Assembly: GCA_044869275.1 (NCBI GenBank)
Contig: JBIOXB010000255.1
Location: 1-25,329 of the forward strand
Length of the DNA: 25,329 bases
DNA from: a bacterium
Lineage (GTDB): Bacteria; Zhuqueibacterota; Zhuqueibacteria; Zhuqueibacterales; Zhuqueibacteraceae
Direction: 5' to 3'
A program made the translations under genes and the position numbers. The notes under the pieces were generated by a model, which saw only the letters and a program-made list of their open reading frames with translations, made no database searches and was not told the origin of the DNA. Shown here piece by piece: positions 5,364 to 21,471 of the stretch. The number at the start of each line of letters is the position of its first letter. Positions within the stretch are counted from its first letter, which is position 1.

Positions 5364-8300
5364 TCATACGTTGAAATATTTCGCTTGCGGATGATGCACG
5401 ATAATTGCTGAGGTTGACTGCTCCGGCACGAGCTGAAATTCCTCCGTCAAAGTCACACCCAGGCGCTCGGGCTGCAGCAACCGAAAGAGCATGGCTTGAT
5501 CTTCGAGATTGGGACAGGCGGGGTAGCCGAAGGAATAGCGCGAGCCGCGATACTCCTGCCGGAACAGCGCGGGAATATCGTGAGCGTCATCTGCCGCGAG
5601 CCCCAGCTCCGCGCGCATCATTTTGTGCCAGTACTCGGCCAGCGCTTCCGCAGTTTCGACGCTCAAGCCATGAAAATAGAGATAGTCCGTGTATTTGTCG
5701 CTCTCAAAGAGCTTCTTGGAAATCTCCGAGGCGCGCCGGCCCACGGTGACGAGCGTCATGCCGATGACGTCGCGTTTGCCGGAGCTCAGGGGCGCGAAGA
5801 AATCGGCAATGCATTGGCAATTGCCTTCTTGCTGGCGCGGAAATGTGAAGCGTGCGATCTCAGTTTTGCCCTCCGCGCCGAACACGATCACGTCATTATT
5901 CTCGCTATTGCAGGGAAAATAGCCGTAGACCAGTTGCGGCTGTAAGCTCGCTTCTGCGATACAGCGTTGCTGCAGTTCGGCGAGCACCGGCTCGAATTTT
6001 TCCTTCACCATCTGTTCATATTCGTGCGGCAGTAGTTTTCCGCGCCGCACTTGCCATTGCCCGCGAAACAGCGCAATGGGATTCACATACGCAAACACCG
6101 TCGCCAGCGGAATGTCGGTGACGAGCTTCGTGCCGAAAAACGGCGGCTGCGGAATTTCCACGGGCTGCCATTTCGGCTGTGCTCCTGCAGCAGCTTGCGC
6201 CATCTTTGGCCCCGGGGGCTGCTGTATCTTCGCTCTCGGATTTGCCCTTGTCGCGCTTCGATTTTCATCTACTTTCACCCCGCCTGGAGCACAAATCTCT
6301 TGCATGAAATGCAGCCCGGCAAAGGCATCTTTGCCATACGCCAGCGGGCCTCGGTAAATGGCGCGCAGATTATCTTCCACGTATTTTCGCGTCAGCGCGG
6401 CACCGCCGAGAATCACGGGAATGCGAATCTCGCGCTCGTTGAGCACTTCCAGATTCTCCTTCATGATCATCGTGGATTTCACCAGCAATCCGCTCATGCC
6501 GATCACTTGCGCGCGGTGCTCCTCCACGGCATGGAGCATTTGCTCGATCGGCACCTTGATGCCGAGATTCACCACTTTGTAGCCGTTATTGGTGAGAATG
6601 ATGTCGACCAGATTTTTGCCAATGTCGTGCACGTCGCCCTTAACCGTGGCCAGGACCATGGTACCTTTGCTCGAGCCTTCCACCCTTTCCATGAACGGTT
6701 CGAGATGTTTGACCGCGGCTTTCATGGTTTCAGCGGACTGCAACACGAACGGCAATTGCATCTGTCCCGTGCCGAAGAGCTCGCCCACAACTTTCATTCC
6801 GTCGAGCAAGATGTCGTTGATGATTTCGAGCGGCGGATATTTTTGCATGGCCTCGGTCAAATCTGCATCCAGGCCCTGCTTGTTGCCGTCGATGATGCGC
6901 TGCTTCAGGCGCTCTTCCACTTCCGCCGGCAGCGCGACTTCAACCTTGGCCTGGTTGCTTTTGTCCGCATAGAACGCAATAATCTCCTGCACTGGATCGG
7001 AAATGCATTTGCCGCTGGCCTCGAATTTGCGCTCGTCAAAAATCAAGCGCCGGTGCAGCTCGAGTTCGGCCTCGCCGATTTTGTGCAAGGGCATGATTTT
7101 GGAAGAATGCACGATCGCCATGTCCAGACCGGCTTGCACGGCATAATACAAAAAAACCGAATTCAACACGTGGCGCGCATGCGGCGCAAGTCCGAATGAA
7201 ACATTGCTCACGCCCAGAATCGTGCGCACGCCGGGCAATTCTGCTTTGAGACGGCGAATGGCCGTAATCGTCTCCAGGCCGCTCTTGCGGAATTCTTCGT
7301 CGCCGCTGCCCAGCGTGAAAGTCAGGCAATCGAAAATCAAATCTTGTGAACGCATGCCGTATTGGTGCACGGCAAGATCGTGAATCCGTTTGGCGATCGC
7401 GACTTTTTCCTCCGCGGTTTTGGCCATGCCTTTTTCGTCGATGGTCAAGGCGATGGTCGCCGCGCCGTATTTTTTGCACAACGGCAAAACGTGCTGCATG
7501 CGCTCTTCGCCGTCTTCGAGATTGATGGAATTGACGAGGGCGCGGCCGGCGACGCGTTGCAGGGCTGCGTCGAGCACTTGCCATTCCGTCGAATCGATCA
7601 CCAACGGCACGGAACTCTGCGTGTTGAGCCGCTCGATCAGCGGAATCATATCCTGCACTTCATCGCGGCCGACGTAGGCGACGCAGACATCGAGCATGTG
7701 GGAGCTTTCGCGCACTTGTTCCTTCGCCATCGCCACCATGGCTTCCCAGTCCTGCTGTGCCAGCAACTCGCGAAACTGTTTGGAGCCGTTGGCGTTCAAG
7801 CGCTCGCCGATCAGAATCGGCGGCGGGTCAAGATGCAGCGGCACGCTGTTATACAAGCTCGCCGCGGAAGGAGTGAAATCGACATATCTTTCTTTGGGCG
7901 CGAGGTGGCCGACGGCTTGCACCAGCATCTTGATGTGGCGCGGCAGCGTGCCACAGCAGCCGCCGACGATTTGTACGCCCAGATCTTTGACAAAATGCGA
8001 GAGGTATTGCGTCAATTCTTCCGGCGTCAATTTATAATGCGCCTGGCCGCCCACGTTTTCGGGCAAACCGGCATTGGGCATGCAAAAAACCGGATAGGGG
8101 CTATTGGCCGCGAGATACCGAATATTCTCCGACATCTCCTTGGGGCCGGTGGCGCAATTCATGCCGATGGCCGCGAGCTCAAATGGTTCGAGCGCCGTGA
8201 GCGCGGCGGAAATGTCGCTACCGAGCAGCATCGTGCCCATGGTTTCAACGGTCACGCTCGCAATGACCGGAACGCGCGTGCGCTTCGCAGCAAAATATTC

Positions 8301-8831
8301 GAAGATCGCGCCCAGCGCCGCTTTGGTTTGCAGCAAATCCTGGCAGGTTTCGACGATGAGCAAATCCACGCCGCCTTCGATCAGGCCGGCAGTTTGTACT
8401 GCAAACGTCGCCTGCATGTCTTGATAAGAAATATTGCCCAGGCTCGGCAATTTCGTCGTCGGCCCCATCGAACCCGCAACAAAGCGCGGATGTGCCGGCG
8501 TGGAAAATTCACGCGCCATCTTGTGCGCAATCTCCGCGGCGCGGCGATTATGTTCATAAGCCCGATCTCCCAAATCATATTCAGCCAGGACAACGGGCGT
8601 AGCGCCGAAGGAATTGGTTTCCACCACGTCGCAGCCGGTTTCGAAAAAACTGGCATGCAGTTTCTCCACCGCCTCCGGCCGCGTGAACACCAGATGCTCG
8701 TTGCAGCCATTCAACGCCTCACCGCCAAAATCATCGGCGTTGAGATTCATATATTGAAAACTGGTGCCGGTCGCCCCGTCGAAGACAAGAATTTTCTCCT
8801 GCAGGCGCCGTTCAAAAAGGGTCTTGTTCAT
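5364..8831 (-). CDS. metH: Cobalamin-dependent methionine synthase
   Basis: Homocysteine-binding domain (FDGATGT, NCATGP, GGCCGT), pterin domain (IGERLNANGSK, VNSINLEDGE), B12 cap and binding domain (QLPFVLQSAETMK, GDVHDIGKN, MSGLL) and activation domain (RYSFGYPACP, PEQSTSA). The true start is most likely ATG 8831 (MNKTLFERRL), not the ORF-track start at 9176. Confidence 0.97.
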   Translation of the reverse strand: MNKTLFERRLQEKILVFDGATGTSFQYMNLNADDFGGEALNGCNEHLVFTRPEAVEKLHASFFETGCDVVETNSFGATPVVLAEYDLGDRAYEHNRRAAEIAHKMAREFSTPAHPRFVAGSMGPTTKLPSLGNISYQDMQATFAVQTAGLIEGGVDLLIVETCQDLLQTKAALGAIFEYFAAKRTRVPVIASVTVETMGTMLLGSDISAALTALEPFELAAIGMNCATGPKEMSENIRYLAANSPYPVFCMPNAGLPENVGGQAHYKLTPEELTQYLSHFVKDLGVQIVGGCCGTLPRHIKMLVQAVGHLAPKERYVDFTPSAASLYNSVPLHLDPPPILIGERLNANGSKQFRELLAQQDWEAMVAMAKEQVRESSHMLDVCVAYVGRDEVQDMIPLIERLNTQSSVPLVIDSTEWQVLDAALQRVAGRALVNSINLEDGEERMQHVLPLCKKYGAATIALTIDEKGMAKTAEEKVAIAKRIHDLAVHQYGMRSQDLIFDCLTFTLGSGDEEFRKSGLETITAIRRLKAELPGVRTILGVSNVSFGLAPHARHVLNSVFLYYAVQAGLDMAIVHSSKIMPLHKIGEAELELHRRLIFDERKFEASGKCISDPVQEIIAFYADKSNQAKVEVALPAEVEERLKQRIIDGNKQGLDADLTEAMQKYPPLEIINDILLDGMKVVGELFGTGQMQLPFVLQSAETMKAAVKHLEPFMERVEGSSKGTMVLATVKGDVHDIGKNLVDIILTNNGYKVVNLGIKVPIEQMLHAVEEHRAQVIGMSGLLVKSTMIMKENLEVLNEREIRIPVILGGAALTRKYVEDNLRAIYRGPLAYGKDAFAGLHFMQEICAPGGVKVDENRSATRANPRAKIQQPPGPKMAQAAAGAQPKWQPVEIPQPPFFGTKLVTDIPLATVFAYVNPIALFRGQWQVRRGKLLPHEYEQMVKEKFEPVLAELQQRCIAEASLQPQLVYGYFPCNSENNDVIVFGAEGKTEIARFTFPRQQEGNCQCIADFFAPLSSGKRDVIGMTLVTVGRRASEISKKLFESDKYTDYLYFHGLSVETAEALAEYWHKMMRAELGLAADDAHDIPALFRQEYRGSRYSFGYPACPNLEDQAMLFRLLQPERLGVTLTEEFQLVPEQSTSAIIVHHPQAKYFNV

Positions 8832-8868
8832 GATATACCCGTGCTTAGTTCGTTGACAGAATGCGCAA

Positions 8869-8896
8869 AATATAGGAAGGGATTGCGGAAAAGCAA
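8869..8896 (-). promoter_or_regulatory. Putative metH promoter
   Basis: Minus strand TTGCTT (8896-8891), 16-bp spacer, TATATT (8874-8869), about 38 bp upstream of ATG 8831. Confidence 0.45.
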
Positions 8897-8963
8897 AGGG
8901 GATTATTCCGCATAAAACCACGGTGACGATCACATCCGAATTGCGGGCGGCCTCAAAATTGCC

Positions 8964-8992
8964 TTGACATCTAACAAATGATTGACTACTAT
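8964..8992 (+). promoter_or_regulatory. Near-consensus sigma70 promoter driving the ECF-CHAT cassette
   Basis: TTGACA (8964-8969), 17-bp spacer, TACTAT (8987-8992); divergent from metH. Confidence 0.7.
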
Positions 8993-9249
8993 TTCCTGCG
9001 CAGATTGGCCTGTTTTCAACAGCCAAATCGTCTGGTTGATCACGGCCCCCTCCTTCTCGCTGAACATCAACTTCAACCATTGCATCCCGCATCGAGAACA
9101 ATCGCCTCCAGGAACGAAGCCATGGCAACGTGATTTTCGCCCGGAGCTGGTTTGTCGTCATCTTTTGGGGTAACATATCACTTTGCAGCCGCTGGCCCAG
9201 GAGCGAGCGCAGCGGGCATGAACGGGCTGTCGCTTAATTCGGGACCGGT

Positions 9250-9903
9250 ATGGATTTCGGCGCTCTCAGCCACAATGATCTGATCAAATTCATAGCGGCT
9301 CATCCGGACGATCGACAGGCCTGGGCGGAATTCGTCGCGCGCTTCAATTCTTTTATCTATGCCACCGTCTTTCGCGAGTGCAAAAAACACGGCCGGTTGT
9401 CCGCTGCCGTGACCATTGATGATTTGGTGCAAGAGGTCTATCTCAAGGTGTGCAAAAATCTCGAGCGTTACCGCGGGGAGTATGAGAATTCCATTTTGCT
9501 ATATCTCGGGATGATTGCGCTGAATACCGTCAAGAACTCCTATCGCCAGCAACATGCCGCGGGGCGCCCACAGGAAGAGAAACGCATTTCCCTCCACGAC
9601 GTGCATGCAGGTTTGCAGCGCGAACGGCCCATTCCCATGATTGAGCTTTTGCCCTCCAAGGATTGGGAGGAAGAGGAGCGTTTGGCCGGCTTGCTGGAGG
9701 AAGTTGAGTATTGCCTGCAAGAAATCTTGCGCAGGAGCAGGCACAGAGTGCGAGACGAGTTCATTTTCCACTATTATTTCGTTGGTGATCTGAGCGTCGA
9801 ACGGATCGCGGCTTATCCGGAAGTCCATTTGTCCCAGCAACGGGTTTTCGGCGTGCTGAAAAGTTTTAAGCAAAAGATTAAAGAATGCCTGGGAAGACTT
9901 TGA
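9250..9903 (+). CDS. ECF-type RNA polymerase sigma factor
   Basis: Region 2 (AWAEFVARF...DDLVQEVYLKV...LYLGMIALNTVKNSYR) and region 4 HTH (FIFHYYFVGDLSVERIAA...LSQQRVFGVLKSFKQKIK); 217 aa, no region 3. Confidence 0.9.
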   Translation: MDFGALSHNDLIKFIAAHPDDRQAWAEFVARFNSFIYATVFRECKKHGRLSAAVTIDDLVQEVYLKVCKNLERYRGEYENSILLYLGMIALNTVKNSYRQQHAAGRPQEEKRISLHDVHAGLQRERPIPMIELLPSKDWEEEERLAGLLEEVEYCLQEILRRSRHRVRDEFIFHYYFVGDLSVERIAAYPEVHLSQQRVFGVLKSFKQKIKECLGRL

Positions 9904-10107
9904 CGCGAAATTTGACTTTACGACACTGAGTCAATAGGCTCTCAAAGGTTGCGGCATTGCGTGGGCTAAAAGCCGGAGATGCTGGAAGGACTGCCCGGTA
10001 GATCCCAGTGCCGCAAACTGCCTATTTTGTTATGAGAGAAACTGGAACACTTGTTGTCTTTATAAAAAACGTGATCCAGTAAAACATTCGTAAGGGAAGC
10101 ATGAAGC

Positions 10108-11103
10108 ATGTCGATTGCAAACCAAGCCGACAACTACGGCGCGGGGAAGTCATTTTCGGGAGAGCATCCCGCGGAAACCGAATTGTTGCAATACTTGGAG
10201 GGCAATCTCGAAGCGCAGGAACGGGGCCGTATCGAAAAACATTTGGAGACATGCCCCTCGTGCTTGCAGGCTATTCTTGCCGTGCGGGAACAGGAAGCCC
10301 GTACCGTCGCGGCGCAGGAATTGGAAGAAGCACAAAAGCTGGCCGTTTGGACACCAGAGCAACATGTCGCGAAAATTCTGGAAACTCAAAAGAAAGAGCA
10401 TGAGAAAAATCGCGGCTCTAATGCGCCTTTTTTAGAAGGAAGGCCGCCTCGCCCAGTGACTGGACCCAAGCTTCCGGGTTACTGGCGGCCACTTGCGGCG
10501 GCAGCAGTTATAGTATTGGCATTGGTCGTCGGCTCTCGGGGCATGCGATATTATCAAAGGGATTACCAAATCGCCCAAGCCACTAAGCTGTTGAAAGAAC
10601 AACACCGCATTTTCATCAAAGATGCGCGTTTGTCGGGCGGTTATGCTTCTTCCGGCATTAGTATTTTGATGGGTGAAGCGGAGGAGCAGCATTATTTGAA
10701 ACAATCCCGAACCCGCCTCGAAAAAGCCATTGGCCACGGTGATGAGTCGATCCAAGCCAGGCAATTGCTGGCGCAAATCCTCATTATCGAAAAGGAATAC
10801 ACACGAGCAGATTCCATTCTACGCTCTTTGGCGCCTGTCGCGAGCCGTTCACCCGCGTTGCTGAACGATCTCGGCGTCTATTATTTTCAGCGGCAGGATT
10901 GGGCGAATGCAGAAAAATATTTTTTAGAGGCGGTCAAAGCCGATCCGAAGTTCCCCGAAGCGCGATATAACCTGGCATTGGTCAAACTGAAAACGGGTAC
11001 AGAAGAAGAAGCCACGGCGATTGTGGACGAATATCTGCAAATTGAAACCGACGAGAATTGGAAAAGGGCCGCACAGAGCCTAAAGGATGATCTAAGGAAA
11101 TGA
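10108..11103 (+). CDS. Anti-sigma factor: zf-HC2 (ZAS) domain + single TM helix + extracytoplasmic TPR region
   Basis: H19...H45-x3-C49-x2-C52 (HPAETELLQYLEGNL...IEKHLETCPSC), TM WRPLAAAAVIVLALVVG, TPRs (ALLNDLGVYY...EAVKADPKFPEARYNLAL); immediately downstream of the ECF sigma; RBS AAGGGA. Confidence 0.9.
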   Translation: MSIANQADNYGAGKSFSGEHPAETELLQYLEGNLEAQERGRIEKHLETCPSCLQAILAVREQEARTVAAQELEEAQKLAVWTPEQHVAKILETQKKEHEKNRGSNAPFLEGRPPRPVTGPKLPGYWRPLAAAAVIVLALVVGSRGMRYYQRDYQIAQATKLLKEQHRIFIKDARLSGGYASSGISILMGEAEEQHYLKQSRTRLEKAIGHGDESIQARQLLAQILIIEKEYTRADSILRSLAPVASRSPALLNDLGVYYFQRQDWANAEKYFLEAVKADPKFPEARYNLALVKLKTGTEEEATAIVDEYLQIETDENWKRAAQSLKDDLRK

Positions 11104-11254
11104 GTCGTGCGGTTTTGGGTGATGGCTCCCATGAAGAACTTTAGGAAATGATCCGAGCTCTTCCCTTCTGCATTGCAAAGGGTTGTGGCCATATGGCGGC
11201 AAACACTTAGTATTACGCGTCTCTTAAACTGTAATCACGACGAGGGAGGGAACA

Positions 11255-12940
11255 ATGATCAGCATAATATTGCTACTGATCGAATTGATCGGGACGATGT
11301 TTCGCCGGTTTCGGCTGCCGAGCGCCGATATTATCGAAATCCGCAGGATACCCGCCACCAAGTCATTGCGCGCTCATCTCTTTGGTTTGTCCCTCGGTTT
11401 TCTGCTTGCCAGTTTGAATTTGCTGTTCGATCTCGCGTTTTCGAACCTCGCCGCAAGCGCGCTCTTGCTGATCTGGTTCATGCTAACCACTTATTTCAGC
11501 AGCATCTTCTTCTTCTTTACCGTGCTGGCGTGTGCCGTAATGCAATGGTCAGCGTTTCCGCTGGGAGCCACGGAGTTCCTCATCATGAACGATCTGCATT
11601 GGTATGTGCTGGGTTACCTGTTCGGCGGAGCCCTGGCTTTGCTTTATAACGACCTCTTGTTTCTTTTCCTACATTTTATCGAGGGGAGAAGGTTTCCGCT
11701 GGTGTTCGCCTATCATCCGGGCCGGAACATCAATATCATCAAGTCTCCAATTTCCACCGAGGAAAGCGCTTTTGTCGTGTTACGGGACTCGGCCTCCGAT
11801 GCCGAGGAAATGAACAAGCAGCGTTTGTATCAATATCATTTGGCCGCACCGCCGCCCAGGCCATACACCATCGTCTTTGCGGCCAATCCGAGCGTTCGCC
11901 GACGTGGTGGAAATGAGAACGACACGAATGCCTATGATGATGATCCCATTCTTTCCGATCGCGATTTGTTCCTGCGCATGGTGGATCAAGCGTTGGAAAG
12001 CTTTGAAATGGATCCCGTCATCGGCCGTCCGGAAATCTGGAGTCGCGTGCGTGTGCTCACGGTTTTCAATCCCAATCTGACGAACGGGCCGGAGTATGGG
12101 TTGGTCGAGCCGTTTCTCGCCGATGAGGCGACGGAAAACAACAATATGATCGCGCCCCGAGCCGGAATGCACACCAATTTCAGAAACCTGTGGAGGGATT
12201 CACGACAAGCCGGCGACCCAGATTTTCCGGCAGACGAATTCGACGTCATTTTTGCAATGACGGCTTCGCCCACACAGACGCGATCGATGGCCGATTTCTC
12301 GGATTGGCGCGCGGTCGGAATGAATGAACGGCTTGACAATTTGCCGAAGATTAGACCGGGGGTACCTTTTGAATTCGATTTCAATCCTTGTCGCAAGAAT
12401 CCTCACGGCAACAAGAAGAACACGATTTTTCCCGTGCTCGATCCCAAGAACAAAAAACAAAACGAATTCAGGCAAGTCCACGACTACTATGCCACGGTTC
12501 CCGGACGCGTGGCCTTGAATGTCCTGAGCGCGCGTTACAAAACCTATACGCATGAATTTGCTCATGCCATGTCTTCATACTTTCACGGCACGATCGCGGA
12601 CGAATACACCGACTGCCTGGTGTTTGCAAATGTGGGCAGCGGCTTTATCTGCCCACAATTCGAGCACTTTTGGGCCAATCGCATCGACCGGAACGGCGAC
12701 GTCATGCGCTCGTCCACGCCGGTTCCGGTTCCCAAGGTGTTCGCAGAGTACAATTGCACGCGCTATCCTGCGGACATGAATCACCCCACAGCCGAAGAAA
12801 GTTGGGCCGGCTATTTTCCCGAAAAATTCGACCGGCATACGCATTGTACTATGGATCGCGAAATGGGACCTTATCGCTTTGATGAATTGATCAGCGCATT
12901 CATTTATGATCGCATGATGGCGAAAGCAAGCCGCCCTTGA
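11255..12940 (+). CDS. Polytopic membrane protein fused to putative M64-like zinc metallopeptidase domain
   Basis: Several hydrophobic helices in residues 1-140; THEFAHAMSSYFHGTIADEY (H433,E434,H437,D449) resembles the M64 HEFGH...GLADEY signature; C-terminal CTMD...F resembles M64 C-x-M...F; strong RBS GAGGGAGG. Confidence 0.7.
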   Translation: MISIILLLIELIGTMFRRFRLPSADIIEIRRIPATKSLRAHLFGLSLGFLLASLNLLFDLAFSNLAASALLLIWFMLTTYFSSIFFFFTVLACAVMQWSAFPLGATEFLIMNDLHWYVLGYLFGGALALLYNDLLFLFLHFIEGRRFPLVFAYHPGRNINIIKSPISTEESAFVVLRDSASDAEEMNKQRLYQYHLAAPPPRPYTIVFAANPSVRRRGGNENDTNAYDDDPILSDRDLFLRMVDQALESFEMDPVIGRPEIWSRVRVLTVFNPNLTNGPEYGLVEPFLADEATENNNMIAPRAGMHTNFRNLWRDSRQAGDPDFPADEFDVIFAMTASPTQTRSMADFSDWRAVGMNERLDNLPKIRPGVPFEFDFNPCRKNPHGNKKNTIFPVLDPKNKKQNEFRQVHDYYATVPGRVALNVLSARYKTYTHEFAHAMSSYFHGTIADEYTDCLVFANVGSGFICPQFEHFWANRIDRNGDVMRSSTPVPVPKVFAEYNCTRYPADMNHPTAEESWAGYFPEKFDRHTHCTMDREMGPYRFDELISAFIYDRMMAKASRP

Positions 12941-12995
12941 TGGAACTTTCACGAACAGTCCCTGGCCGCTCTCATGAAACCATGGAGATAAGTTT

Positions 12996-13472
12996 ATGAT
13001 GCCACTCCACCCCAATTTTCGAAAACTGCTATTGGTGAAGATTCGGAAGCTCAAGCGCAGTGATTTGGACAATTATGACAGCCTGCTGGCTTTGCGGCTG
13101 CAGGCAACACATCAAAAGAGCCTGATGGAGCCAAGGTCGGAATCACGTGCAGCCGTTGAAAAGCTGATCACTGAAACTACCAGAGCAGCGAATAGAGTGA
13201 TTTCTCCTTTTCGGCAGCAATTCGATGCATTGCATCTGTTATGGGCTTATCGGCGTCGATTGGCGCTGCGGCAAGGAAATCTATTGCAGATTCCAACCTC
13301 TTGGAAGAACTTGGGTGGGCTGGTCCTCGCTGCGATCGATCATTCGGGGGCACAATTTGCTTACTTTGGCTCGCTGCTGCTCCGTTGGATTAAGAGTCTT
13401 TTTCCCGTGCGTGCGCAAAAACGCGAGCCCGAAACGCATCAACCACAAAAAAACGGGAAGATCCGCCAGTAG
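12996..13472 (+). CDS. Hypothetical protein (158 aa, basic, predicted helical)
   Basis: RBS GGAGA upstream; fills the gap between the peptidase and CHAT genes and ends 5 bp before the CHAT start; no family recognised. Confidence 0.7.
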   Translation: MMPLHPNFRKLLLVKIRKLKRSDLDNYDSLLALRLQATHQKSLMEPRSESRAAVEKLITETTRAANRVISPFRQQFDALHLLWAYRRRLALRQGNLLQIPTSWKNLGGLVLAAIDHSGAQFAYFGSLLLRWIKSLFPVRAQKREPETHQPQKNGKIRQ

Positions 13473-13477
13473 CTGTT

Positions 13478-16400
13478 ATGAAGATTAACAAGAAGACAAT
13501 TCTTGCTGGGCTTGTTTTGTTTGCCCTGCTCACGGCCTTAGCAGTGTGGTGGCGGACAATAGAGAAGCCCACGCTGGTCGATTTGCAGAAGCGCTATCTC
13601 TTCGCCCGCACCGAAGCAGAGCGCGAAGGTGTGGTCGATCAATTGGAGCAATATTATATAAACCTTCCGGTTCCGGATTCAATCAGCCGCAATGTTGACA
13701 AAGCCGTGCAAGCCGCTTTGGACACCACAAAAATCGACCCCGCCAATCTCACTTTGGATCAAACAGAAGCGAATGTTTATGTACTCGAAGGGCAACTCAC
13801 TGCCGCGTTGAAAACCGCAATGATTGCACGAGCGCGGAGAGATGATTTGGCATTCGAAGAAATTATGAATCGCTTGCGTGAGACGGCCAAGATTGTGGAC
13901 GAAGGCCTGCAGTCAGATTATTGGAGTAACTTCATTGCTAGAATGGCGCAATTCAACCGAGAAGAAGCTGTTTCATCGCTAAAGGCTGAAAGGGCAGAGA
14001 AGCTTTGTCACTTTGACAATACGGGCGGCCGGTTTCTCATTGCAGAAAAGTATGGCGCGCTGAGTTTGAAGTATTTACAACAGGCTGAGGATACACGGCT
14101 GCGCTTGACGCTCATCCAACGTTTTCAAATTATTCTCAACCACTACTACGGCTTGAATGATTTATCCATCGCTCTGGCAAATCGCTATTTGGCGAAGGCG
14201 CATCGCATACGATATCATCTACGCGCTCTCGGCTTAGCCTTCAATGAAGGTGGATCGCTCCAAGACAACGGAGAAATCGCGCAGGCATTAGAAATTTTTC
14301 AACGAATCATAAGTTCGGCGGAACAATACCAGGCCGTGCCCAATATATCGTGGTACAAAATCAATGCGCTAATACTAGCCGCCACTGCATATTGGCAATT
14401 GGGAATGTATAAAGAGACCTTGGCATACTGCCAGAAAGCAGAGCAATTGGAATTATCAAGTATTGAAAAAACTGAGTTGCATGCCATTCGCGGCTTAGTG
14501 CAAAGGCGGCTGGGAAATTACCAGGAAGCAGAAACCGAATATCGATTGGCATTACGATTAACGCAATCAGATACTGTGAATCTGATCCGAATTTTAGGCA
14601 ACATTGGACTTATGTATTATGAGCTAACCGAATATGATCAGGCATTGGAATACTGCCAGCGAGCGCTCGATATTTTACAGCGATTTTCCCCCAAACATTA
14701 TGAAAGAAAAAGCAACCTCTTGATCGATATCGCTAAAATAATGGCAAAAAAGGGCCGTTACTTTACAGTGGATTCGTTGCTCCGCGAAGCGGCGAAACTG
14801 ATCGAAAAAGCTGCTGATCTGCCGCGGCGACACGCCGACTTGTTGTTCACCACCGGTAGATTCAGTTCGGATATCAATAAGAATCAACAGGCACTCATCT
14901 ATATCCAGAAAGCCGACTCAATTTGCGAAAAGCATGGGCTCGTGAGATTGGGTTTGGATATTAAACTCGATTATGCAAGAATTCTAGCCCAACTCGGACA
15001 ATTTTCAAATGCTCGCCAACAGCTCGAAGAAGTATTAAGGACAGCGCAACAACTTGATGAAAAGGAAAAAGCAATTGACGCAAGTGCAATGTCTGCTAAA
15101 ATCGAGGCACAGCAAGGGCGCAGTGACAACGCGGCAAGAATCTCTGAGATTGTGATTCAAGATATTGAAGAATTAAGTTCCCGATTCGACAGCCCCGAGC
15201 GTTTGGCGGCTTATCGCCAAAAAATCTACGACTATCTAAAGGAAGCTGTCATTTATGAAATTAGCAACAAGCGCTTCGTCTCGGCTTTTCAAAAGCTGGA
15301 TCATGCCAAAGCTGCCACATTAAAAATGCGCAATCACATTAGCGACAGTGCGAATGGCGAACCGTCAAGTTCTTCGCACGCAGTCGCTCTAAACGACCTA
15401 CAAAATCACCTAGATGAACGCAGCTTGGTAATTGATTTCTTACTCATGCCGGATACGCTCTATGCTTTTGTTTTGAATCGTGGCGGCCTGCAGCTTTTCA
15501 GAAAAGAATTGAGTATAGAGAATTTAAAATCGACCGTATACGCTTACCGAGATTCTATCAATAATACCATTGCAGTGTTTCGAGATGGTTATAATGCCCA
15601 TGCGATCGACGCTCATTTCGAAGGGACAACACAATTGGGTCGAAAGCTGTATCAAGATCTGTTCGGGTGGCCGGAACTAAATGCCTGCTTACAAGGCAGT
15701 AATTCAGTTTATATCATTCCTGATGAATTTCTCTACGACGTGCCTTTTGCAACCTTGGTCTTGGATCAGCCGGATTCGACAGTTTTTCTAATAGAGAAAG
15801 TCGCACTTATGAACTTGCCCAGCGCCTCACTCTTGCAAGGGCATGATGCCAATGATCTTGCCTTCGGAGTCGAGTACAAAGAGCTGATGGTAAGCGCTGA
15901 TACTCGAATTCCAGAAGCGCGGGAGTTCGTAACAGAGATCAAGCATCAATTCCCTTTAGCGGAAGTATTGCAAACCGATCGGGAAGTCATTGAAAAAAAT
16001 CATGTGTTGACTGCCATGAATCAGAGCCATGGAATATACATCTTCTCCGGTCACAGTGTTGCAAACGTCGTTGACCCCGATCTTTCTTTCATCGAAATCT
16101 ACGTAGCGAAGGCGGCGTCCCAAACTGCCCAGACCATTCAAATGCAGTGGGCCGATCTGAAATCGCTCGATTGGTCAAAGGCGGAATTGGTGCTGTTATT
16201 GGGATGTCAAACCGCGGCCGGAAAGCTCTATCGCGGCAGCGGCATCTCCGGTCTGCAACAAGGTTTTCTGTCGATGGGGGCAAAACGCGTGGTGGCTAGT
16301 TTGTGGCGCATCGATGCCGCCCAATCCCTGCCTCAGGCGCAAAGCTTTTTGCAATCTTGGGTTCGGTTGGGATATCCGGCATGGGCCATGAGAGAGATGC

Positions 16401-16498
16401 AACTACAGTCGATTCGAAGATTGCGGCAACACAGCTATTTTAGAAAACCTCACCCTTACTTTTGGGGCAGCTATATTCTCACTGTCAAAACAATTTGA
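13478..16498 (+). CDS. TPR-CHAT (caspase/HetF-like) cysteine protease with N-terminal signal/anchor
   Basis: N-terminal MKINKKTILAGLVLFALLTALAVWWR; multiple TPRs (ILGNIGLMYYELTEYDQALEYCQRAL); CHAT motifs IIPDEFLYDVPFATL, FSGH859S, LVLLLGC910QT, GFLSMGAKRVVASLWRID, HPYFWGSY. Confidence 0.95.
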   Translation: MKINKKTILAGLVLFALLTALAVWWRTIEKPTLVDLQKRYLFARTEAEREGVVDQLEQYYINLPVPDSISRNVDKAVQAALDTTKIDPANLTLDQTEANVYVLEGQLTAALKTAMIARARRDDLAFEEIMNRLRETAKIVDEGLQSDYWSNFIARMAQFNREEAVSSLKAERAEKLCHFDNTGGRFLIAEKYGALSLKYLQQAEDTRLRLTLIQRFQIILNHYYGLNDLSIALANRYLAKAHRIRYHLRALGLAFNEGGSLQDNGEIAQALEIFQRIISSAEQYQAVPNISWYKINALILAATAYWQLGMYKETLAYCQKAEQLELSSIEKTELHAIRGLVQRRLGNYQEAETEYRLALRLTQSDTVNLIRILGNIGLMYYELTEYDQALEYCQRALDILQRFSPKHYERKSNLLIDIAKIMAKKGRYFTVDSLLREAAKLIEKAADLPRRHADLLFTTGRFSSDINKNQQALIYIQKADSICEKHGLVRLGLDIKLDYARILAQLGQFSNARQQLEEVLRTAQQLDEKEKAIDASAMSAKIEAQQGRSDNAARISEIVIQDIEELSSRFDSPERLAAYRQKIYDYLKEAVIYEISNKRFVSAFQKLDHAKAATLKMRNHISDSANGEPSSSSHAVALNDLQNHLDERSLVIDFLLMPDTLYAFVLNRGGLQLFRKELSIENLKSTVYAYRDSINNTIAVFRDGYNAHAIDAHFEGTTQLGRKLYQDLFGWPELNACLQGSNSVYIIPDEFLYDVPFATLVLDQPDSTVFLIEKVALMNLPSASLLQGHDANDLAFGVEYKELMVSADTRIPEAREFVTEIKHQFPLAEVLQTDREVIEKNHVLTAMNQSHGIYIFSGHSVANVVDPDLSFIEIYVAKAASQTAQTIQMQWADLKSLDWSKAELVLLLGCQTAAGKLYRGSGISGLQQGFLSMGAKRVVASLWRIDAAQSLPQAQSFLQSWVRLGYPAWAMREMQLQSIRRLRQHSYFRKPHPYFWGSYILTVKTI

Positions 16499-16521
16499 GA
16501 GGGTATAATTCAGGAGATAAC

Positions 16522-16872
16522 ATGCAAGGTCGCGTATTTATCGCCGCAGAAGAGTCTACGCCGAAGCCCGGCGGTGGTCAGCCAGAAGATGAACCAGGGT
16601 TCGCACGCGTTGCGCTGCGCTCGCAAGGTCTATTAACGCTGGCCTTCGGCTTCGCGCTGGGTCTGGCTTTTATGCTGCTTTTCGTTCTAGTCCGAGAAAT
16701 GGGCACGCCGACACCGGCCGGTATAGTGGCCACTTTCGTGGCGCAAATCAATCCTAATCTGTGGCTGAGCTTTCTCGCCGGTTTCCTGAGCGGTACGCTG
16801 TTGGCAGCGGTATACAACCTGCTCGTCGTGCGGCGCATCAATCTCTTCGGCCTGGAAAGCAGCGCGGATTAA
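16522..16872 (+). CDS. Small membrane protein (116 aa, two TM helices)
   Basis: ATG 16522 with RBS AGGAGA; TM1 LLTLAFGFALGLAFMLLFVLV, TM2 LWLSFLAGFLSGTLLAAVYNLLVV. Confidence 0.8.
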   Translation: MQGRVFIAAEESTPKPGGGQPEDEPGFARVALRSQGLLTLAFGFALGLAFMLLFVLVREMGTPTPAGIVATFVAQINPNLWLSFLAGFLSGTLLAAVYNLLVVRRINLFGLESSAD

Positions 16873-16874: not shown

Positions 16875-16901
16875 AAAAATGCCCGCCAAATGAGCGGGCA
16901 T
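16875..16901 (-). terminator. Intrinsic terminator hairpin between convergent genes
   Basis: ATGCCCGC-caaatga-GCGGGCAT (16879-16901), followed on the minus strand by a U-tract (A-run at 16875-16879); downstream of the FecR gene. Confidence 0.7.
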
Positions 16902-16951: not shown

Positions 16952-17710
16952 TTAGCGCTGCACTCCCCGGTCGCGGGTGAGATTCCACTGCACCCAATCG
17001 TCCTGCTGCTGCAACGCGGTATTGATGGGCGTTTGCGCGTAGCGGCCGTCGTTGCGGATCTCCATTTGATACCCTTCCACCAGGCGCACCCACTGTTCGA
17101 GCGTGACTTGATAGGGTCCAGGCACGCGTGTGGGACCGGGCACTTGTTGGGGCGCACCGGGCCGCGGCGCTTGTTGTTGCAGCTTGTCGCGCAAACTCGT
17201 GGTCGGGCCGACATCAACCTGGCCGTCATAAACCGCCACGCGCGTGGTGCTGTCCGCGGCAATGCTATAAATCGTGCCGCGAATCGCACACACGGCGGTG
17301 GGCGATTTGATTTCAAATTTTTCCTTGGTGCCGAACAGGCTCAAAATGTTCGCCCAAATTTTCCCGTATGAAACCGAAGCATTGAACTGCCGGGCGTCTT
17401 TAGCAGCGCGCGAGGTCTCGAAATCAAACATAGATTTCTCGCCGATGCGAATCAGGCTGCCGTCGCTCAATTTGATCTCGCAGCGCGACTCCGTCTGGGT
17501 TTGGATTTTGTCGCCCTCGCGCACAGGCATTTGCAAAGCCGCGGGGCTCCACTCGTTGCCAGCCGTATGCTGCACGCGCACTTCGCCGGCTTTGCCCAGG
17601 AGAAAATTGATCTTTCCCAAAGCCGGGGGATAGGGTGAATAGGTCGAGCTGAGATGAATGCTCCCCAACAACATGATGCCAAACAAAGTTGCTGCTTTGG
17701 AAACTGTCAT
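16952..17710 (-). CDS. FecR domain-containing exported protein
   Basis: Signal peptide; GDKIQT...SRCEIKLSDGSLIRIGEKS, FEIKSPTAVCAIRGT, VAVYDGQVDV are FecR-domain motifs. Confidence 0.88.
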   Translation of the reverse strand: MTVSKAATLFGIMLLGSIHLSSTYSPYPPALGKINFLLGKAGEVRVQHTAGNEWSPAALQMPVREGDKIQTQTESRCEIKLSDGSLIRIGEKSMFDFETSRAAKDARQFNASVSYGKIWANILSLFGTKEKFEIKSPTAVCAIRGTIYSIAADSTTRVAVYDGQVDVGPTTSLRDKLQQQAPRPGAPQQVPGPTRVPGPYQVTLEQWVRLVEGYQMEIRNDGRYAQTPINTALQQQDDWVQWNLTRDRGVQR

Positions 17711-17747
17711 GAAATTGACTCTTTATTTACTCAAACCTATCTTCTCC

Positions 17748-17796
17748 GGACGCAGAGCGTCATCGTCTGCATTCCACCGCGTAGCGGTGGAACGAG
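17748..17796 (+). repeat. REP-like double-hairpin extragenic palindrome
   Basis: GACGC-aga-GCGTC followed by TTCCACCGC-gta-GCGGTGGAA then CGAG; resembles the GACGCAGAGCGTC...GCATTCCCACGCAGAGCGTGGGAACGA class of dispersed repeats. Single copy in this window. Confidence 0.55.
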
Positions 17797-17837
17797 AGTT
17801 TTCACACGGTCCGAATCTTCGTAGGGCTTTAACCGCT

Positions 17838-18857
17838 TCACATCTTGCGCTCGACTTTTTTGTAACCTGCGGGCGTGCTGAACACCTCGGCGCTGAACGT
17901 GCCGGTTTTGATTTCTTTGGTCTCTTCGGACGATTCAAACATCACGCTGCGTCCCGGTGCGCTGCCTGGTTTAGGCGCCATTTTCTTGCCGAATCCGCCG
18001 AGCAGGCCGCCCACTGAGGTCGGCATTTCTTGTGTTTTTGCGCCCTCGGCTGACGCGGGCGCTGCCGCTGTGGTTTGATCGGACCACGTTTCAAACACGC
18101 TTTCGGTTTTCACGGCAACGCCTTCCAGCTTCTTGCCTTCTTCCGCCAGTTTTTCTATGGCCTTCGCCAATTGCGGGTTGAACGCCGCGAGCGCCTGCCA
18201 CTGATTCATAGGGCCCTCTGCACCCATGGCGAGGCCCATCTTTTCGGCAAACTTCTGGCCGAAAGCCATCCCTTCCTCCTTGCCGGGCGCGTCCTTCGCC
18301 ATCCACTGCGTCGAAGTGATGATCATTCCGCCCTTGCCGGCCGCAGAGGTGGCCGTGGCCTGCGTCTCTCCCTTGGCCTGCATGGTGACGATCACTTTTT
18401 CCGCATTGAAGCCGGCGATATTTTGCTTTTCGCCGGTGCGGTCCACTTTGTAATCATATTCCATTTTGACGTCCGCCGCGCCTGGCTGCGCCGCGGGCGT
18501 TTGCATGCCGGCCATCTTCTCTTTCATCTTGGCCATCATCTCCTTGAATTCCGCGAAAGTCATCTCGGTGTATTCTTTTTTCTGGTGATCGACGTTGATG
18601 ATCACCTCGCGGTCGAGATCGGTGATGGTCGAGCTTTCGAGCTTGCCCTCCTCGCTCATGCGGTCGGAGCGCGAGTGGCTGCCGTCGAGATACGTCGTGG
18701 CCGTGTACGTTTTGCCGGCGCCGGACATTTTCATCATGGTGCCCAGAAAGCCGTGAAATTTGGTGCTGGTGGTTTTCACGGTTTTGACACCGGGGTTGGC
18801 AAATAGCGAGACGGCCAACGCCACGATCAGAACGAGCGCAACGCGGAAAGATTTCAT
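17838..18857 (-). CDS. Exported protein, DUF4412-like
   Basis: Signal peptide; TITDLDREVIINVDHQKKEYTEM, TGEKQNIAGFNAEK and terminal F-x-x-PAGYKK are typical of DUF4412-like proteins; RBS AGGAGA. Confidence 0.65.
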   Translation of the reverse strand: MKSFRVALVLIVALAVSLFANPGVKTVKTTSTKFHGFLGTMMKMSGAGKTYTATTYLDGSHSRSDRMSEEGKLESSTITDLDREVIINVDHQKKEYTEMTFAEFKEMMAKMKEKMAGMQTPAAQPGAADVKMEYDYKVDRTGEKQNIAGFNAEKVIVTMQAKGETQATATSAAGKGGMIITSTQWMAKDAPGKEEGMAFGQKFAEKMGLAMGAEGPMNQWQALAAFNPQLAKAIEKLAEEGKKLEGVAVKTESVFETWSDQTTAAAPASAEGAKTQEMPTSVGGLLGGFGKKMAPKPGSAPGRSVMFESSEETKEIKTGTFSAEVFSTPAGYKKVERKM

Positions 18858-19004
18858 ACCTGGTTCTCCTAGTTAGTAAAAAATCCTCAACAAATCTTCC
18901 GGCACCAAGGCATAAAGCTGCACGGCGGCACCGAGAGATTTTTGAGTTTCTTGCTCGGTGAGACTTGATGGGTTTGTGCCTCGATGCTTTCCATTAAATA
19001 TAAA

Positions 19005-19943
19005 TCACTTCTTCTCTCTCACAATATCTCCCTTGTCGAAGCCGGAGCCGGACAACACCTTGCATTCCGAGGCCTTGCCTTTGCCGCCGTAATTGTTGTC
19101 GAGCACTTGGATGCTGCCGAGCTCTTCTTCGGAGGAGCCCAGAGATTCGCCGGTGTCGGGATCGATCAAATCTTCACCTTTGCGCACCACAACGAATACG
19201 TCTCCCACTTTGACGCCGCCTTCCTTGCCGGAGTTGATCAGGACATTGGCGCCTTTCATCATCACCACTTTTGCTTCCCACGCACCGCCGCCGCCACCTT
19301 GTTCCTCGAGCAGCTTCGCAACCTGGTCAATGGCCTCACGCGTGGCCTTGCCCACCAGCGATTCGTCGAATTGCGCTTGATTCTCGAAACTGATGTCGCG
19401 TGTATCGATGTCGACGCTGCCTTTAGAGTTTTCTTTGCGCACGCTCTCCGCGGTCTTAATTTCGCCGGAGCTCACGTCCACGAAGCGGACGTCTACACCA
19501 ACGACCGCACTTTGCTTGCCGAAGCTGGCGCCAATGCCGATTTTCTTCAGCGCGCCACCGGTGGAAACTTTTTTGTAGCCGAATTCCGTGACCGCGCCCA
19601 TGATGGCCAGCTCCACTCCCAGCATTTTGCCGGCTTGCGCCGCGGTCTGCGGCGTGATCACACCGGACATGCCCAAGCCCTGCTCTTTCAGCAATTGGTC
19701 CATTTGCGCGCGTTCCATCACGCGATACTTGCCGCTCTTTACCAGCGTCGTGGTGAGCATGTCCGCCATGCCGTCCCCGACGGGCTGGCCGTTCCACCAG
19801 TGATAGCGATGATCGGTTTTGTCCTCAAACACGAATACCGCCACACGTTTTTTGCCGGTTTTTTCTTGGGCGTGAACGCCGCCGGTTGCCCAACCCAAAA
19901 CGGAGCAACTCAAAAGGGCCCACAGGACGACAGATCTTCTCAT
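19005..19943 (-). CDS. CsgG/HfaB family protein with FlgT C-terminal-like beta domain
   Basis: RVAVFVFED, GMADMLTTTLVKSGKYRVMER...LLKEQ, A...GKMLG...GAVTEF, VDVRFVDVSSGEI; C-terminal VLINSGKEGGVKVGDVF...IDPDTGESLG. RBS AAGGAG spacing favours ATG 19943 over 19952. Confidence 0.88.
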   Translation of the reverse strand: MRRSVVLWALLSCSVLGWATGGVHAQEKTGKKRVAVFVFEDKTDHRYHWWNGQPVGDGMADMLTTTLVKSGKYRVMERAQMDQLLKEQGLGMSGVITPQTAAQAGKMLGVELAIMGAVTEFGYKKVSTGGALKKIGIGASFGKQSAVVGVDVRFVDVSSGEIKTAESVRKENSKGSVDIDTRDISFENQAQFDESLVGKATREAIDQVAKLLEEQGGGGGAWEAKVVMMKGANVLINSGKEGGVKVGDVFVVVRKGEDLIDPDTGESLGSSEEELGSIQVLDNNYGGKGKASECKVLSGSGFDKGDIVREKK

Positions 19944-19977
19944 CTGCAACATCTCCTTGCAAATTGGTTAGAGATTT

Positions 19978-21222
19978 TCAATGATTGCTCGAATCCACGG
20001 TCACAGGCACTGCTTCCATGGCGGCCGCGGGTTGCTTGATTTTGAGGTCAATGCGATTCGCAGAGACGTTGGTGACCTCCGCCTCAAACGGATCGAGATC
20101 TTTATTCGCCAGCTCGCGCGCCAATTGCTGGGCATTGCCTATGATTTTGACATCGAGTGTGGCGTATCCGGCGGCACTGCCGCGTTCATAGACGTTCTTG
20201 ATGCCGCGAATGTAGCTCTTCAACACGCCGCTGAATTTTTGCAGCTCGGCGTAATTCTGGTAGCCTTGCACGCGCACCGTGACGCTGTTCTCGTTGTAAA
20301 AACTCTTCTGCGCTTCTTCTACGACCTTGGTGATCAGCGTTTCGCCCGCTTTCTTGGAGGCTTTTTCAATCGCCATGGTGCCGCCGGTGAGCTCGTCAAT
20401 GTGCGGGTAAGCAGCGTGCTCGCTGGCCGTGGCGACGATGCGTGCATCGCCGGCACGCACCACGCGCGCCGTGATATTGGCCTGGCAGGATTTCATGCCG
20501 CCGAGATTAACGCCGGTGGCGACTTTGGCTGCGGCTTTGCCGGTGACGATCAATTCCGCATGTTGCGCCGCGGCAATCGCCGCCGCTTTGCGCGCATCAC
20601 CTTCGATGGCGCTCAAGATGGCGTCACGATCTTGATTGTTCTTGGCCTGCCCCGGATCGACGACTTCAAAGCCTTTCACGCGAAACTGCTCGATCACCGC
20701 CGTTTCCGCCGCGGTCATGTCGACTTCGAAATAGCGCAACCTGTCCGTATCGCCGATATTCTGCTCGGCGATCATCACCATCACCCGCGGGTTTTCCTTC
20801 TGCAACAGCTCGGCCAGAGCTTGATCGTCGTTTTTCAAATCGCTCAAATTCACCAACGCGCGCATTTGCACTTCGTAGGTGTCATACTGGCCCCGCCCCT
20901 CGCGCAAAATATCGTACTTCGTCACGTAGCCCGAAGACCATGCCAGAATGCGGTCTTCGACCATCTGAAAATTCTCCACCAGTGTTTCCGATTTGATGTG
21001 CGTGCCCAGCGCTTGCTGCACCGCTTTGCGCATGGCATCATCCAGGGCTTTATCACGCGCCGCGGCTTGATCGTTCGCCAAGATCGCGCCCGTGCCGAGC
21101 ACGGTAATTTCCACGCCCTGCGGCTTGGGCGCGGCGCTGGTCTTGGAGGTTTGCGCCCAAAGTGGCGCCTGCACGAGCAGCAGCGCCAGCGCAAAAAGGA
21201 TTTTATGTTTTTGATTCGGCAC
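19978..21222 (-). CDS. Exported protein with flagellar assembly protein T N-terminal (FlgT_N) domain
   Basis: G-x-G...AARDKALDDAMRKAVQQALGTHIKSETLVENF...SSGYV is FlgT_N-like; NPRVMVMIAEQ begins a CsgG/TolB_N-like middle domain. Probable start GTG 21222 (RBS GAGAGGGAG) gives a clean signal peptide. Confidence 0.8.
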   Translation of the reverse strand: MPNQKHKILFALALLLVQAPLWAQTSKTSAAPKPQGVEITVLGTGAILANDQAAARDKALDDAMRKAVQQALGTHIKSETLVENFQMVEDRILAWSSGYVTKYDILREGRGQYDTYEVQMRALVNLSDLKNDDQALAELLQKENPRVMVMIAEQNIGDTDRLRYFEVDMTAAETAVIEQFRVKGFEVVDPGQAKNNQDRDAILSAIEGDARKAAAIAAAQHAELIVTGKAAAKVATGVNLGGMKSCQANITARVVRAGDARIVATASEHAAYPHIDELTGGTMAIEKASKKAGETLITKVVEEAQKSFYNENSVTVRVQGYQNYAELQKFSGVLKSYIRGIKNVYERGSAAGYATLDVKIIGNAQQLARELANKDLDPFEAEVTNVSANRIDLKIKQPAAAMEAVPVTVDSSNH

Positions 21223-21463: not shown

Positions 21464-21471
21464 AGTCACAT

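Follow-up and report, generated by a model that had tools for sequence, protein, structure and literature searches.

A six-gene cassette occupies positions 9250 to 16872 of contig JBIOXB010000255.1, a whole contig of 25,329 nucleotides (25 kb; hereafter the window) from a 6.67-Mb genome in 255 contigs. We read this cassette, at about even chances, as a two-armed relay, in which a split switch resembling DdvS/DdvA of Myxococcus xanthus is joined to an undescribed protease-inhibitor arm. Gene order, motifs, gene fusions, a promoter motif, and blocks of co-inheritance give this reading its sequence basis; the folds, the membrane topology, and the binding of the peptidase to its partner are predicted. 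In order, the genes are designated S (sigma factor), Z (anti-sigma), P (peptidase), I (a 158-amino-acid [aa] protein), C (TPR-CHAT), and T (a two-transmembrane [2-TM] protein).

A model reading of the letters alone (the sequence-only reading) had described six co-oriented genes with named domains and motifs, and all six plus-strand open reading frames (ORFs), the zf-HC2 domain, the TPRs, the HEFAH motif, the CHAT domain, and H859/C910 were found where it placed them. Two details of its boundaries changed. The start of T is most likely the ATG at 16522, after a GGAG ribosome site, giving 116 aa and not 136. The bounding convergent terminator is present as a hairpin, but its T-tail lies on the minus strand; the scan therefore called it a terminator of the convergent operon and not clearly of the cassette. 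The features, in window coordinates, are as follows.

8964-8992, + strand: sigma-70-like promoter (TTGACA-17-TACTAT) 5' of the sigma gene, a candidate from a consensus scan (10/12 matches)
9250-9903, + strand: S, divergent extracytoplasmic function (ECF) sigma factor, 217 aa (Sigma70_r2, TIGR02937)
10032-10062, + strand: predicted ECF-type promoter (ATGAGAGA-N14-TTGTCTTTA) between S and Z, before the five downstream genes, from motif scoring
10108-11103, + strand: Z, anti-sigma, 331 aa, with a cytoplasmic zinc-binding domain, one TM helix, and a predicted periplasmic TPR domain
11255-12940, + strand: P, membrane-anchored M64-like metzincin, 561 aa, with a DUF5676-derived anchor and a predicted cytoplasmic catalytic domain
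12996-13472, + strand: I, helical-hairpin partner of P, 158 aa, predicted cognate inhibitor
13478-16498, + strand: C, TPR-CHAT protease with an N-terminal anchor and the dyad H859/C910, 1006 aa, predicted to be periplasmic
16522-16872, + strand: T, 2-TM protein, 116 aa, with a Pro/Gly/Asp-rich leader of ~25 aa and a DUF5676/holin_4-type hairpin
16879-16901, - strand: hairpin with a minus-strand T-tail, separating the cassette from the convergent gene with a FecR domain

Conservation and co-inheritance of the cassette

A 53-row peptidase alignment was used to fetch 56 genome loci and 71 metagenome loci; the window itself and 24 loci with a distant peptidase type lacking a TM segment were excluded from the cassette count. 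Among the 38 loci that were fully flanked (at least 3.6 kb upstream and at least 5.2 kb downstream, near-duplicates included), P, I, C, and T were each present in all 38, S in 36, and Z, by profile, in 32, and all six genes were recognized by profile in 31. Gene order was conserved far beyond chance across the fetched related loci, and the co-occurrence that the sequence-only reading had asked to be checked was thus borne out. Four of the six loci without a profile match to Z were inspected, and each contained a divergent pair, consisting of a small HxxCxxC-type protein and a TM-TPR protein. One locus (L045) kept P-I-C-T with no S or Z of the family in the upstream DNA examined, and another (L074) carried a different ECF-like gene. 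Both in the window and among the fetched loci, Z and C were encoded by different ORFs, with no single polypeptide joining zinc-binding anti-sigma (ZAS), TM, TPR, and CHAT parts. All six genes were under purifying selection (pN/pS, 0.08 to 0.55; 8 locus pairs, with some genes missing from some pairs). Tandem duplications also occurred, with two cassettes in a row in L069, repeated sigma/anti-sigma heads in L036, and two sigmas in L092.

Named homologue records were mostly from KSB1 (Candidatus Zhuqueibacterota) and Calditrichota, so the host is probably a KSB1 bacterium; the cassette keeps its order in many uncultured members of these two groups. The peptidase belongs to a small family, with 302 representatives found among 1.84 billion at E <= 0.001, and its spread is patchy, with a member in 42 of the 167 genomes of the window's phylum, about a quarter. 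By a comparison of two tables, 38 of the 40 genomes with a strong T match are among these 42. The flanking genes (184 listed) varied by locus and were mostly housekeeping genes. From these, 91 proteins were picked and scanned; none gave a recognizable match to a defence or mobile-element family at E <= 1e-8, with about one-third giving no match of any kind, and neither these proteins nor the window contained a CBASS or CRISPR regulon beside the cassette. PADLOC returned only a generic TPR match and two weak matches. The window contained no CRISPR array, and a cas1 gene lies on another contig of the genome.

Distance correlations were calculated for 31 loci, after 6 loci were dropped for pattern failures and 15 were skipped as duplicates, broken, or rearranged. 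S correlated with the cytoplasmic part of Z (rho, 0.71), whereas the periplasmic part of Z, P, I, C, and T correlated with each other (0.44 to 0.86), and correlations across these two blocks were low (0.09 to 0.30). The break between the blocks falls inside the anti-sigma. Z is the putative inhibitor of S, and this co-variation is the observation that connects the two. A three-gene S-Z-C cassette without P, I, and T was present in the same genome (L225, contig C222, positions 4599-9464 of that contig), and its CHAT grouped with clade C (support, 100; like the peptidase tree, this was a quick tree). Because this sister cassette exists, the second arm appears dispensable for some sigmas of this kind. 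Its sigma ORF has N-terminal hydrophobic segments, as do some clade C sigmas; its CHAT gene is followed by an ORF that is short and very basic.

S matched Sigma70_r2 (E, 1.7e-8) and TIGR02937 (45.1 bits; cut-off, 42.9). The latter match spans residues 24-214; region 4 had no Pfam match in the window protein, and a paralogue of S had a weak Sigma70_r4_2 match (E, 7.5e-4). Z matched zf-HC2 (E, 4e-7) at aa 28-52, with a hydrophobic segment at about aa 122-147 and TPRs at about aa 249-322. Its zinc motif, H45-x3-C49-x2-C52, precedes the single TM segment and its gene lies next to the sigma gene, the arrangement that defines ZAS membrane anti-sigmas (HxxxCxxC before one TM, beside a sigma gene). 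Among the Z homologues, 58/66 had the zinc motif and 61/66 the TM segment.

A two-block motif, G(G/A)GA(A/G)(A/T)-N14/15-(G/T)TGTCT(A/T)T, was found after the sigma stop codon, usually no more than 25 bases away. Of 56 loci, 42 had leave-one-out scores of 11 bits or more, compared with 6 of 168 shuffles, and the window site was the top-scoring one in its genome. Fixed patterns of this promoter gave 59 matches in 30 genomes, compared with 9 for the reversed patterns; in a set of 13 genomes the corresponding counts were 51 and 17. Sites resembling the sigma-70-like promoter were seen by eye 5' of the sigma gene in L009, L012, and L070, and a few loci had a further promoter site before S. In a second sigma clade, mostly with an extra small zinc-finger-like gene, the -10 element was often different (by eye). 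The cassette is probably composed of two transcription units, S being expressed from the sigma-70-like site and the other five genes from the ECF-type promoter, and S probably drives Z-P-I-C-T rather than itself. We infer recognition of the 10032-10062 site by S.

A regulon could not be called in the window's genome, where only the window site stood out in a genome-wide scan. In relatives, promoter matches preceded a mixed set of genes, including paralogous anti-sigmas and sigmas, four sigma-54 activators, subtilases, kinases, polysaccharide export genes, a five-locus operon that is trypsin-like by eye, and single caspase, CARF-HTH, and SpvB-domain genes (56 hand-picked proteins were scanned, and chance-looking matches were also present). 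The wider regulon is mixed and is not assignable to S over a paralogue. The five-locus operon lies behind the same promoter motif in L009 (16165-20769), L066, L067, L188, and L216; it encodes an ~250-aa protein without a Pfam match and the proteins that look trypsin-like by eye, one with an SLT domain. A weak promoter match in L222 (contig C63, positions 72949-79302 of that contig) precedes two genes, one encapsulin-like and the other for a protein of 1699 aa that contains a papain-like C70 domain.

Outside the cassette, a divergent methionine synthase gene lies on one side and a convergent envelope operon on the other (16952-23838, - strand), encoding FecR, an unknown protein, CsgG, FlgT-like, TPR-SLH, and LPP20 (lipoprotein) products. 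A tRNA-Gly gene (23927-24002, - strand) lies upstream of that operon.

The peptidase, its helical partner, and the membrane proteins

P has N-terminal hydrophobic helices and a HEFAH motif at 433-437 (with E434); it had no Pfam match, the M64 profile included, and searches of solved structures by sequence, single or profile, gave no match. The residues H433-E434-x2-H437...D449-E450 are followed by C531-x-M533-D534, which resembles a Met-turn and in which M533 is presumably the Met-turn residue. HExxH and M533 were invariant in 53 aligned peptidases, as were E450 and C531; no other Cys was invariant (the second zinc site of M64 consists of a Glu and three Cys). The structure model of P (pLDDT, 88) matched BF3526 (Foldseek E, 3e-4; against 4df9, Z 13.3, root mean square deviation 3.8, 227 residues aligned), followed by IgAse (Z 9.7) and ADAM-type metzincins (Z about 8), and the Atlas places P in a Peptidase_M64 cluster (0.96). 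The modeled fold is thus that of an M64-like metzincin, though P is M64-like and not an M64 member. Identity to the M64 peptidases is 12 to 14%, and the zinc motif of P, HEFAH-x7-G-x3-D-E, has the same residues as the M64 motif given in PMC12402451 (HEXXHXXXGXXD) but is five residues longer. The distant stand-alone peptidases (24 loci) were soluble and TM-less. At L115, L117, L121, and L122, some stand-alone peptidase loci had an upstream 90-aa copy of the N-terminal domain of P together with an SCP2-domain gene, the same pattern of domain plus stand-alone copy as described for T below.

I is a helical hairpin. Fold searches with it gave generic helical matches only (best Z, 7.5), its Atlas matches were all unnamed, and 4 of 78 members of its family had a weak match to the Rv0078B antitoxin. 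Its gene followed that of P in 114/114 loci with enough downstream DNA, also outside the cassette (a gap of up to 2.8 kb was allowed). In 17 of the 24 distant loci a 65- to 130-aa version of I followed the soluble peptidase, and the other 7 ended too early. The distant stand-alone loci that carried titles were from Planctomycetota, Acidobacteriota, Actinomycetota, and Methylomirabilota; none of the 17 stand-alone P-I pairs had an S, Z, or T of the family in the DNA available, which amounted to 7 to 21 kb in only four of them. P and I are two protein families, neither with a Pfam model, whose pairing extends over several phyla.

The predicted P-I complex had an ipSAE of 0.84, compared with 0.00 for the best of three controls; the mark used for this score was reached by 116/157 solved and 2/215 mismatched pairs, a rough calibration only, for which own alignments were used. 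Contacts were at least 75% concordant between runs, and the pLDDT of the partner was at least 71. In the predicted complex, helix 22-47 of I lies over P residues 342-348, H433, E434, and D449, the active-site cleft, and because of this placement we read I as a likely inhibitor of P. I is fused N-terminally to TM-TPR-CHAT in L011 and L045, and 56 of 115 I homologues have a TM segment of their own; the I of the window has none. A search for longer, fused forms of I returned none, which is weak evidence, and fusions were seen in the fetched loci instead. P and I of some loci have a common 60-aa helical insert. In a 443-aa protein (P0141), the loop of an I-family domain is interrupted by the catalytic half of P; this protein may be a natural fusion or an assembly artefact. 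The P-D-S-T tail of I homologues was considered as a caspase site and set aside in favor of an O-glycosylation sequon.

Among T homologues at E <= 0.05, 28/59 matched NF037947 (the NCBIfam "bacteriophage holin" model) and 14/59 matched DUF5676; the window copy matched neither. The DUF5676/holin_4 domain was common to T and the N-terminus of P in 20 loci of clades B and C (z, 7 to 20 against shuffles), and the N-terminus of the L028 peptidase scored 74.3 bits against the curated NF037947 cut-off of 70. By these comparisons T is a paralogue of the membrane anchor of P. Its leader (mean, 25 aa) is rich in Pro, Gly, and Asp, with Pro/Gly-rich motifs in 52/59 homologues. In L227, L228, and L229 the same domain forms the C-terminus of a flavin adenine dinucleotide (FAD) oxidoreductase of the PRK07208 type, followed by a stand-alone copy, and it also occurs alone among housekeeping genes. 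For these reasons a holin function was set aside: T is probably not a holin, and we read the domain as one for membrane assembly or anchoring. T is chromosomal, and no endolysin or phage genes were found in the window or the scanned flanks. We found no paper on DUF5676 or on the NF037947 holin model. According to PMC12402451, IgAse cuts after proline; as a hint to cleavage of the T leader this is a lead only, since the specificity of BF3526 differs.

C has an N-terminal anchor, TPRs, and a CHAT domain (E, 1e-29) with H859 and C910, and the His and Cys of the dyad were present in 62/62 homologues. In a profile comparison its CHAT domain was nearer to Csx29 (E, 1e-11), and DdvA was more distant (E, 0.1). 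A lipobox-like signal was flagged in 11/60 CHAT homologues, a few of them doubtful. In L224 (contig C34, ~50400-58600 of that contig), a sigma/zinc-finger pair and two TPR-CHAT genes enclose a small lipoprotein-like ORF with a Pro-Gly-rich end, which follows an ECF-type promoter match, and in L201 a similar Pro/Gly peptide precedes a CHAT gene. These peptides are possible ligands of TPR-CHAT sensors.

The topology of these proteins was predicted from charge and from a sequon. By the positive-inside rule, P had a mean K+R of 4.3 before its first TM segment and 3.1 after its last, and T was in-in in 56/59. We counted D-S-[AILVMT], the D-S-x part of the Bacteroidota O-glycosylation motif (PMC8550257). 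The observed/expected ratio was 5.5 for Z after its TM, 3.4 for CHAT, and 9.0 for the I tails, compared with 0.67 for the P domain, 0.97 for S, 0.94 for Z before its TM, and 0.87 for the T leader; in the genome calibration, lipoproteins gave 1.86 and proteins without a hydrophobic segment gave 0.98. CHAT is thus predicted to be periplasmic, the catalytic domain of P and the core of I cytoplasmic, and both ends of T inside. With CHAT and P on opposite faces of the membrane, as predicted, CHAT could not cut P directly. The enrichment in predicted periplasmic parts makes the sequon usable as a topology marker, and it suggests O-glycosylation of the Bacteroidota type in KSB1 and Calditrichota, the modification itself being read from the sequon.

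The proposed relay and its alternatives

We propose that an outside signal would activate CHAT, which would both start the release of S and free P from I. In the first arm, by analogy with DdvS/DdvA, S would be made from the housekeeping-type promoter and held by the zinc domain of Z, and the periplasmic TPR domain of Z together with the separate TPR-CHAT would act as a split DdvA-like sensor. The first cut would fall to CHAT and the second to a host M50 site-2 protease; M50 proteases are encoded in the window's genome. Freed S would then transcribe the five downstream genes from 10032-10062, resetting the switch, along with a small regulon. The second arm is more speculative: I would be the cytoplasmic output piece of the CHAT receptor, and its release would let P cut a membrane-bound partner. 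The likeliest partner would be T, docked via the paralogous anchor domain and offering its Pro/Gly/Asp-rich cytoplasmic leader. A broader formulation, in which the cassette would be a new kind of relay between proteases across the membrane, is tentative, and we would not favor it as a whole: a periplasmic caspase-like receptor would control a cytoplasmic metzincin via a membrane-coupled helical inhibitor, the metzincin would process an anchor-docked 2-TM partner, exchangeable ECF sigma heads would be plugged onto this core at the anti-sigma, and the P-I pair would represent a new family used alone in other phyla.

Several points weigh against the relay. It is important to note that every cleavage, signal, substrate, and biological role in it is inferred and that P-I binding is predicted; even in DdvA, CHAT self-cleavage is unproven, according to PMC11506125. 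The P-I model cannot separate an inhibitor from a bound substrate, and conservation was not higher at the interface (P, 0.52 versus 0.54; I, 0.38 versus 0.41). The I of the window has neither a TM segment nor a periplasmic tail by which CHAT would reach it. The cytoplasmic placement of I is also challenged, by sequon ratios of 1.5 to 1.7 in the I cores (partly from a conserved D-S-L in the helix) and by one I with Ig-like domains, which are usually found in exported proteins. The clade to which the window belongs (A) shows divergence between T and the P anchor, with a z of 1.7 for the window's own pair and a range of -0.2 to 9.8 over 27 loci. The genome-wide count of promoter sites (100) was not above those of column-shuffled matrices (78, 71, and 198), and the sigma that reads the promoter could be a paralogue of S. 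Finally, the loci are kin, so their counts are not independent, and the co-inheritance blocks could arise, at least partly, by simple linkage.

Other readings of the same genes were weighed against the relay. One is abortive infection, in which freed P would remove the T leader, T would oligomerise to a holin-like pore that kills or arrests the cell, and S would prime the module. The holin-model matches of the T family, the patchy spread, and the few promoter-pattern matches before caspase, CARF-HTH, or SpvB-domain genes all fit it; DdvS controls a defence island, and protease-activated pores are an established defence logic (10.1101/2025.11.14.688446). Against it stand the scan of flanking proteins, the PADLOC result, the lack of any paper found on the hairpin domain or its holin model, and the occurrence of the hairpin on an oxidoreductase and alone among housekeeping genes, which fits an anchoring or assembly domain. 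We consider this reading unlikely; a defence or cell-death role, as the sequence-only reading had suggested, is possible but drew no support from the neighborhood. Less likely again is a linear cascade in which P would be a dedicated cytoplasmic-side protease cutting the anti-sigma stump to free S, with T only a scaffold. P and the zinc domain are predicted to lie in the same compartment, and some family sigmas have N-terminal hydrophobic segments that might need clipping. However, P tracks the periplasmic block (0.17 to 0.18 against S or the cytoplasmic part of Z), three-gene cassettes exist without P, stand-alone P-I pairs exist without such a sigma, and L045 keeps P-I-C-T with no family S or Z upstream.

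Marginally lower we place a peptide-signal loop, in which I or T would be a precursor, and a cut would free a Pro/Gly-rich peptide sensed by the periplasmic TPRs for cell-to-cell signalling. Its appeal lies in the Pro/Gly-rich motifs of T leaders and I tails, in the small Pro/Gly-rich peptides beside other sigma/CHAT loci (C34 and L201), and in the I helix, which ends at the active site just before the most variable I loop. The T leader is predicted to be cytoplasmic, though, the cassette has no exporter, and the O-glycosylation sequon accounts equally simply for the P-D-S-T tail motif. The sequence-only reading had pointed to the type III-E craspase as a known case and had CHAT directly cleaving the anti-sigma, I, or a P zymogen. 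A craspase-like cut of I or P would fit the closeness of the CHAT profile to Csx29 and the many I homologues with a periplasmic tail within reach of CHAT. In the window, CHAT is predicted to be exported and to lie on the opposite side of the membrane from the P catalytic domain and the I core, and no CRISPR array accompanies it; such direct cleavage has only a slight chance of being correct, and the craspase model fails here. Among the proposed substrates only the outer part of the anti-sigma is in direct reach in this locus, and I, which has no TM segment here, is better read as the inhibitor of P, given the complex scores. What held of the earlier proposal is its core, a proteolytic signalling system that is independent of CRISPR, tethered to the membrane, and equipped with an intact caspase dyad, for which we found conservation and no CRISPR link.

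The two-armed relay, which remains our preferred reading, would matter in several ways. The first cut proposed for DdvA has stayed unproven, since that protein combines enzyme and substrate in a single chain and its signal is not known; the cassette encodes the two separately, and its candidate promoter offers a ready reporter. P would be an M64-like metzincin working inside the cell, and I a small helical partner predicted to plug it. Should the second arm be correct, a single bacterial operon would link proteolysis on one face of the membrane to proteolysis on the other. Signalling in the window's phylum is little described, and about a quarter of its genomes carry the peptidase.

Comparison with known systems

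Neither the six-gene system nor the P-I pair was described in the literature searched, which mostly did not extend to subscription papers and supplements. The M64-like metzincin fold of P, I as its likely inhibitor, the paralogy of T and the anchor, the opposite-face topology, and the ECF-type promoter are, as predicted here, new points.

P resembles the M64 peptidases BF3526 and IgAse/ThomasA (PMC12402451) in fold and in a HExxH with a downstream Asp-Glu. Unlike the secreted IgAse, it is membrane anchored, predicted to be cytoplasmic, and accompanied by a dedicated helical partner. ECF54 of Actinobacteria (PMC7826278 supplement) likewise places an ECF sigma near a TPR-CHAT protein and another protease, but it has no anti-sigma, its partners are subtilase and carboxypeptidase-regulatory proteins, and its hosts are monoderm.

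In the type III-E craspase (Csx29, Csx30, and CASP-sigma; PMC10028731), a TPR-CHAT is linked to a sigma and its inhibitor, and Csx29 is the nearest solved CHAT by profile. That system is cytoplasmic and RNA triggered through Cas7-11, and Csx30 is not a ZAS membrane protein. A craspase identity was set aside: the cassette lacks the Cas7-11, Csx30, Csx31, and CRISPR array that stand beside a cytoplasmic TPR-CHAT in that system, cas1 is on another contig, and its own CHAT is predicted to be exported. The type III-B SAVED-CHAT/PCaspase/PCi/PCc-sigma cluster of Haliangium (10.1101/2023.06.23.546230) combines a CHAT, a second protease, its inhibitor, and a sigma, as the cassette appears to do. It is cytoplasmic and cA3 triggered, and there CHAT directly cuts the second protease, a caspase, whereas that of the cassette is a membrane metzincin predicted to lie across the membrane from CHAT.

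The closest known system, by analogy, is DdvS/DdvA of Myxococcus xanthus (PMC11506125 and PMC6061681). Both systems have an ECF sigma, a zinc-binding cytoplasmic anti-sigma domain, one TM segment, and a periplasmic TPR and CHAT with a His-Cys dyad (the location being predicted here), and for both a first cut by CHAT and then RseP is proposed, with sigma-driven local genes. They differ in that DdvA is one chain and Z and the TPR-CHAT are separate genes, that the cassette has an additional trio of peptidase, predicted inhibitor, and 2-TM protein, and that the promoters are not alike, that of DdvS being GTAA-N16-CGT. A further difference is the position of the ECF promoter, which in the cassette follows the sigma gene. 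The cassette has no adjacent CBASS or CRISPR; PMC11506125 reports such an adjacent regulon for only some DdvA-like pairs, and DdvA itself only from Myxococcota and one Comamonas. Because of the split genes, the different promoter, and the lack of linked CBASS or CRISPR, we do not consider the cassette a member of the DdvA family. By analogy, the cassette would work most like DdvS/DdvA, and the Haliangium cascade would offer the closest logic to its second arm.

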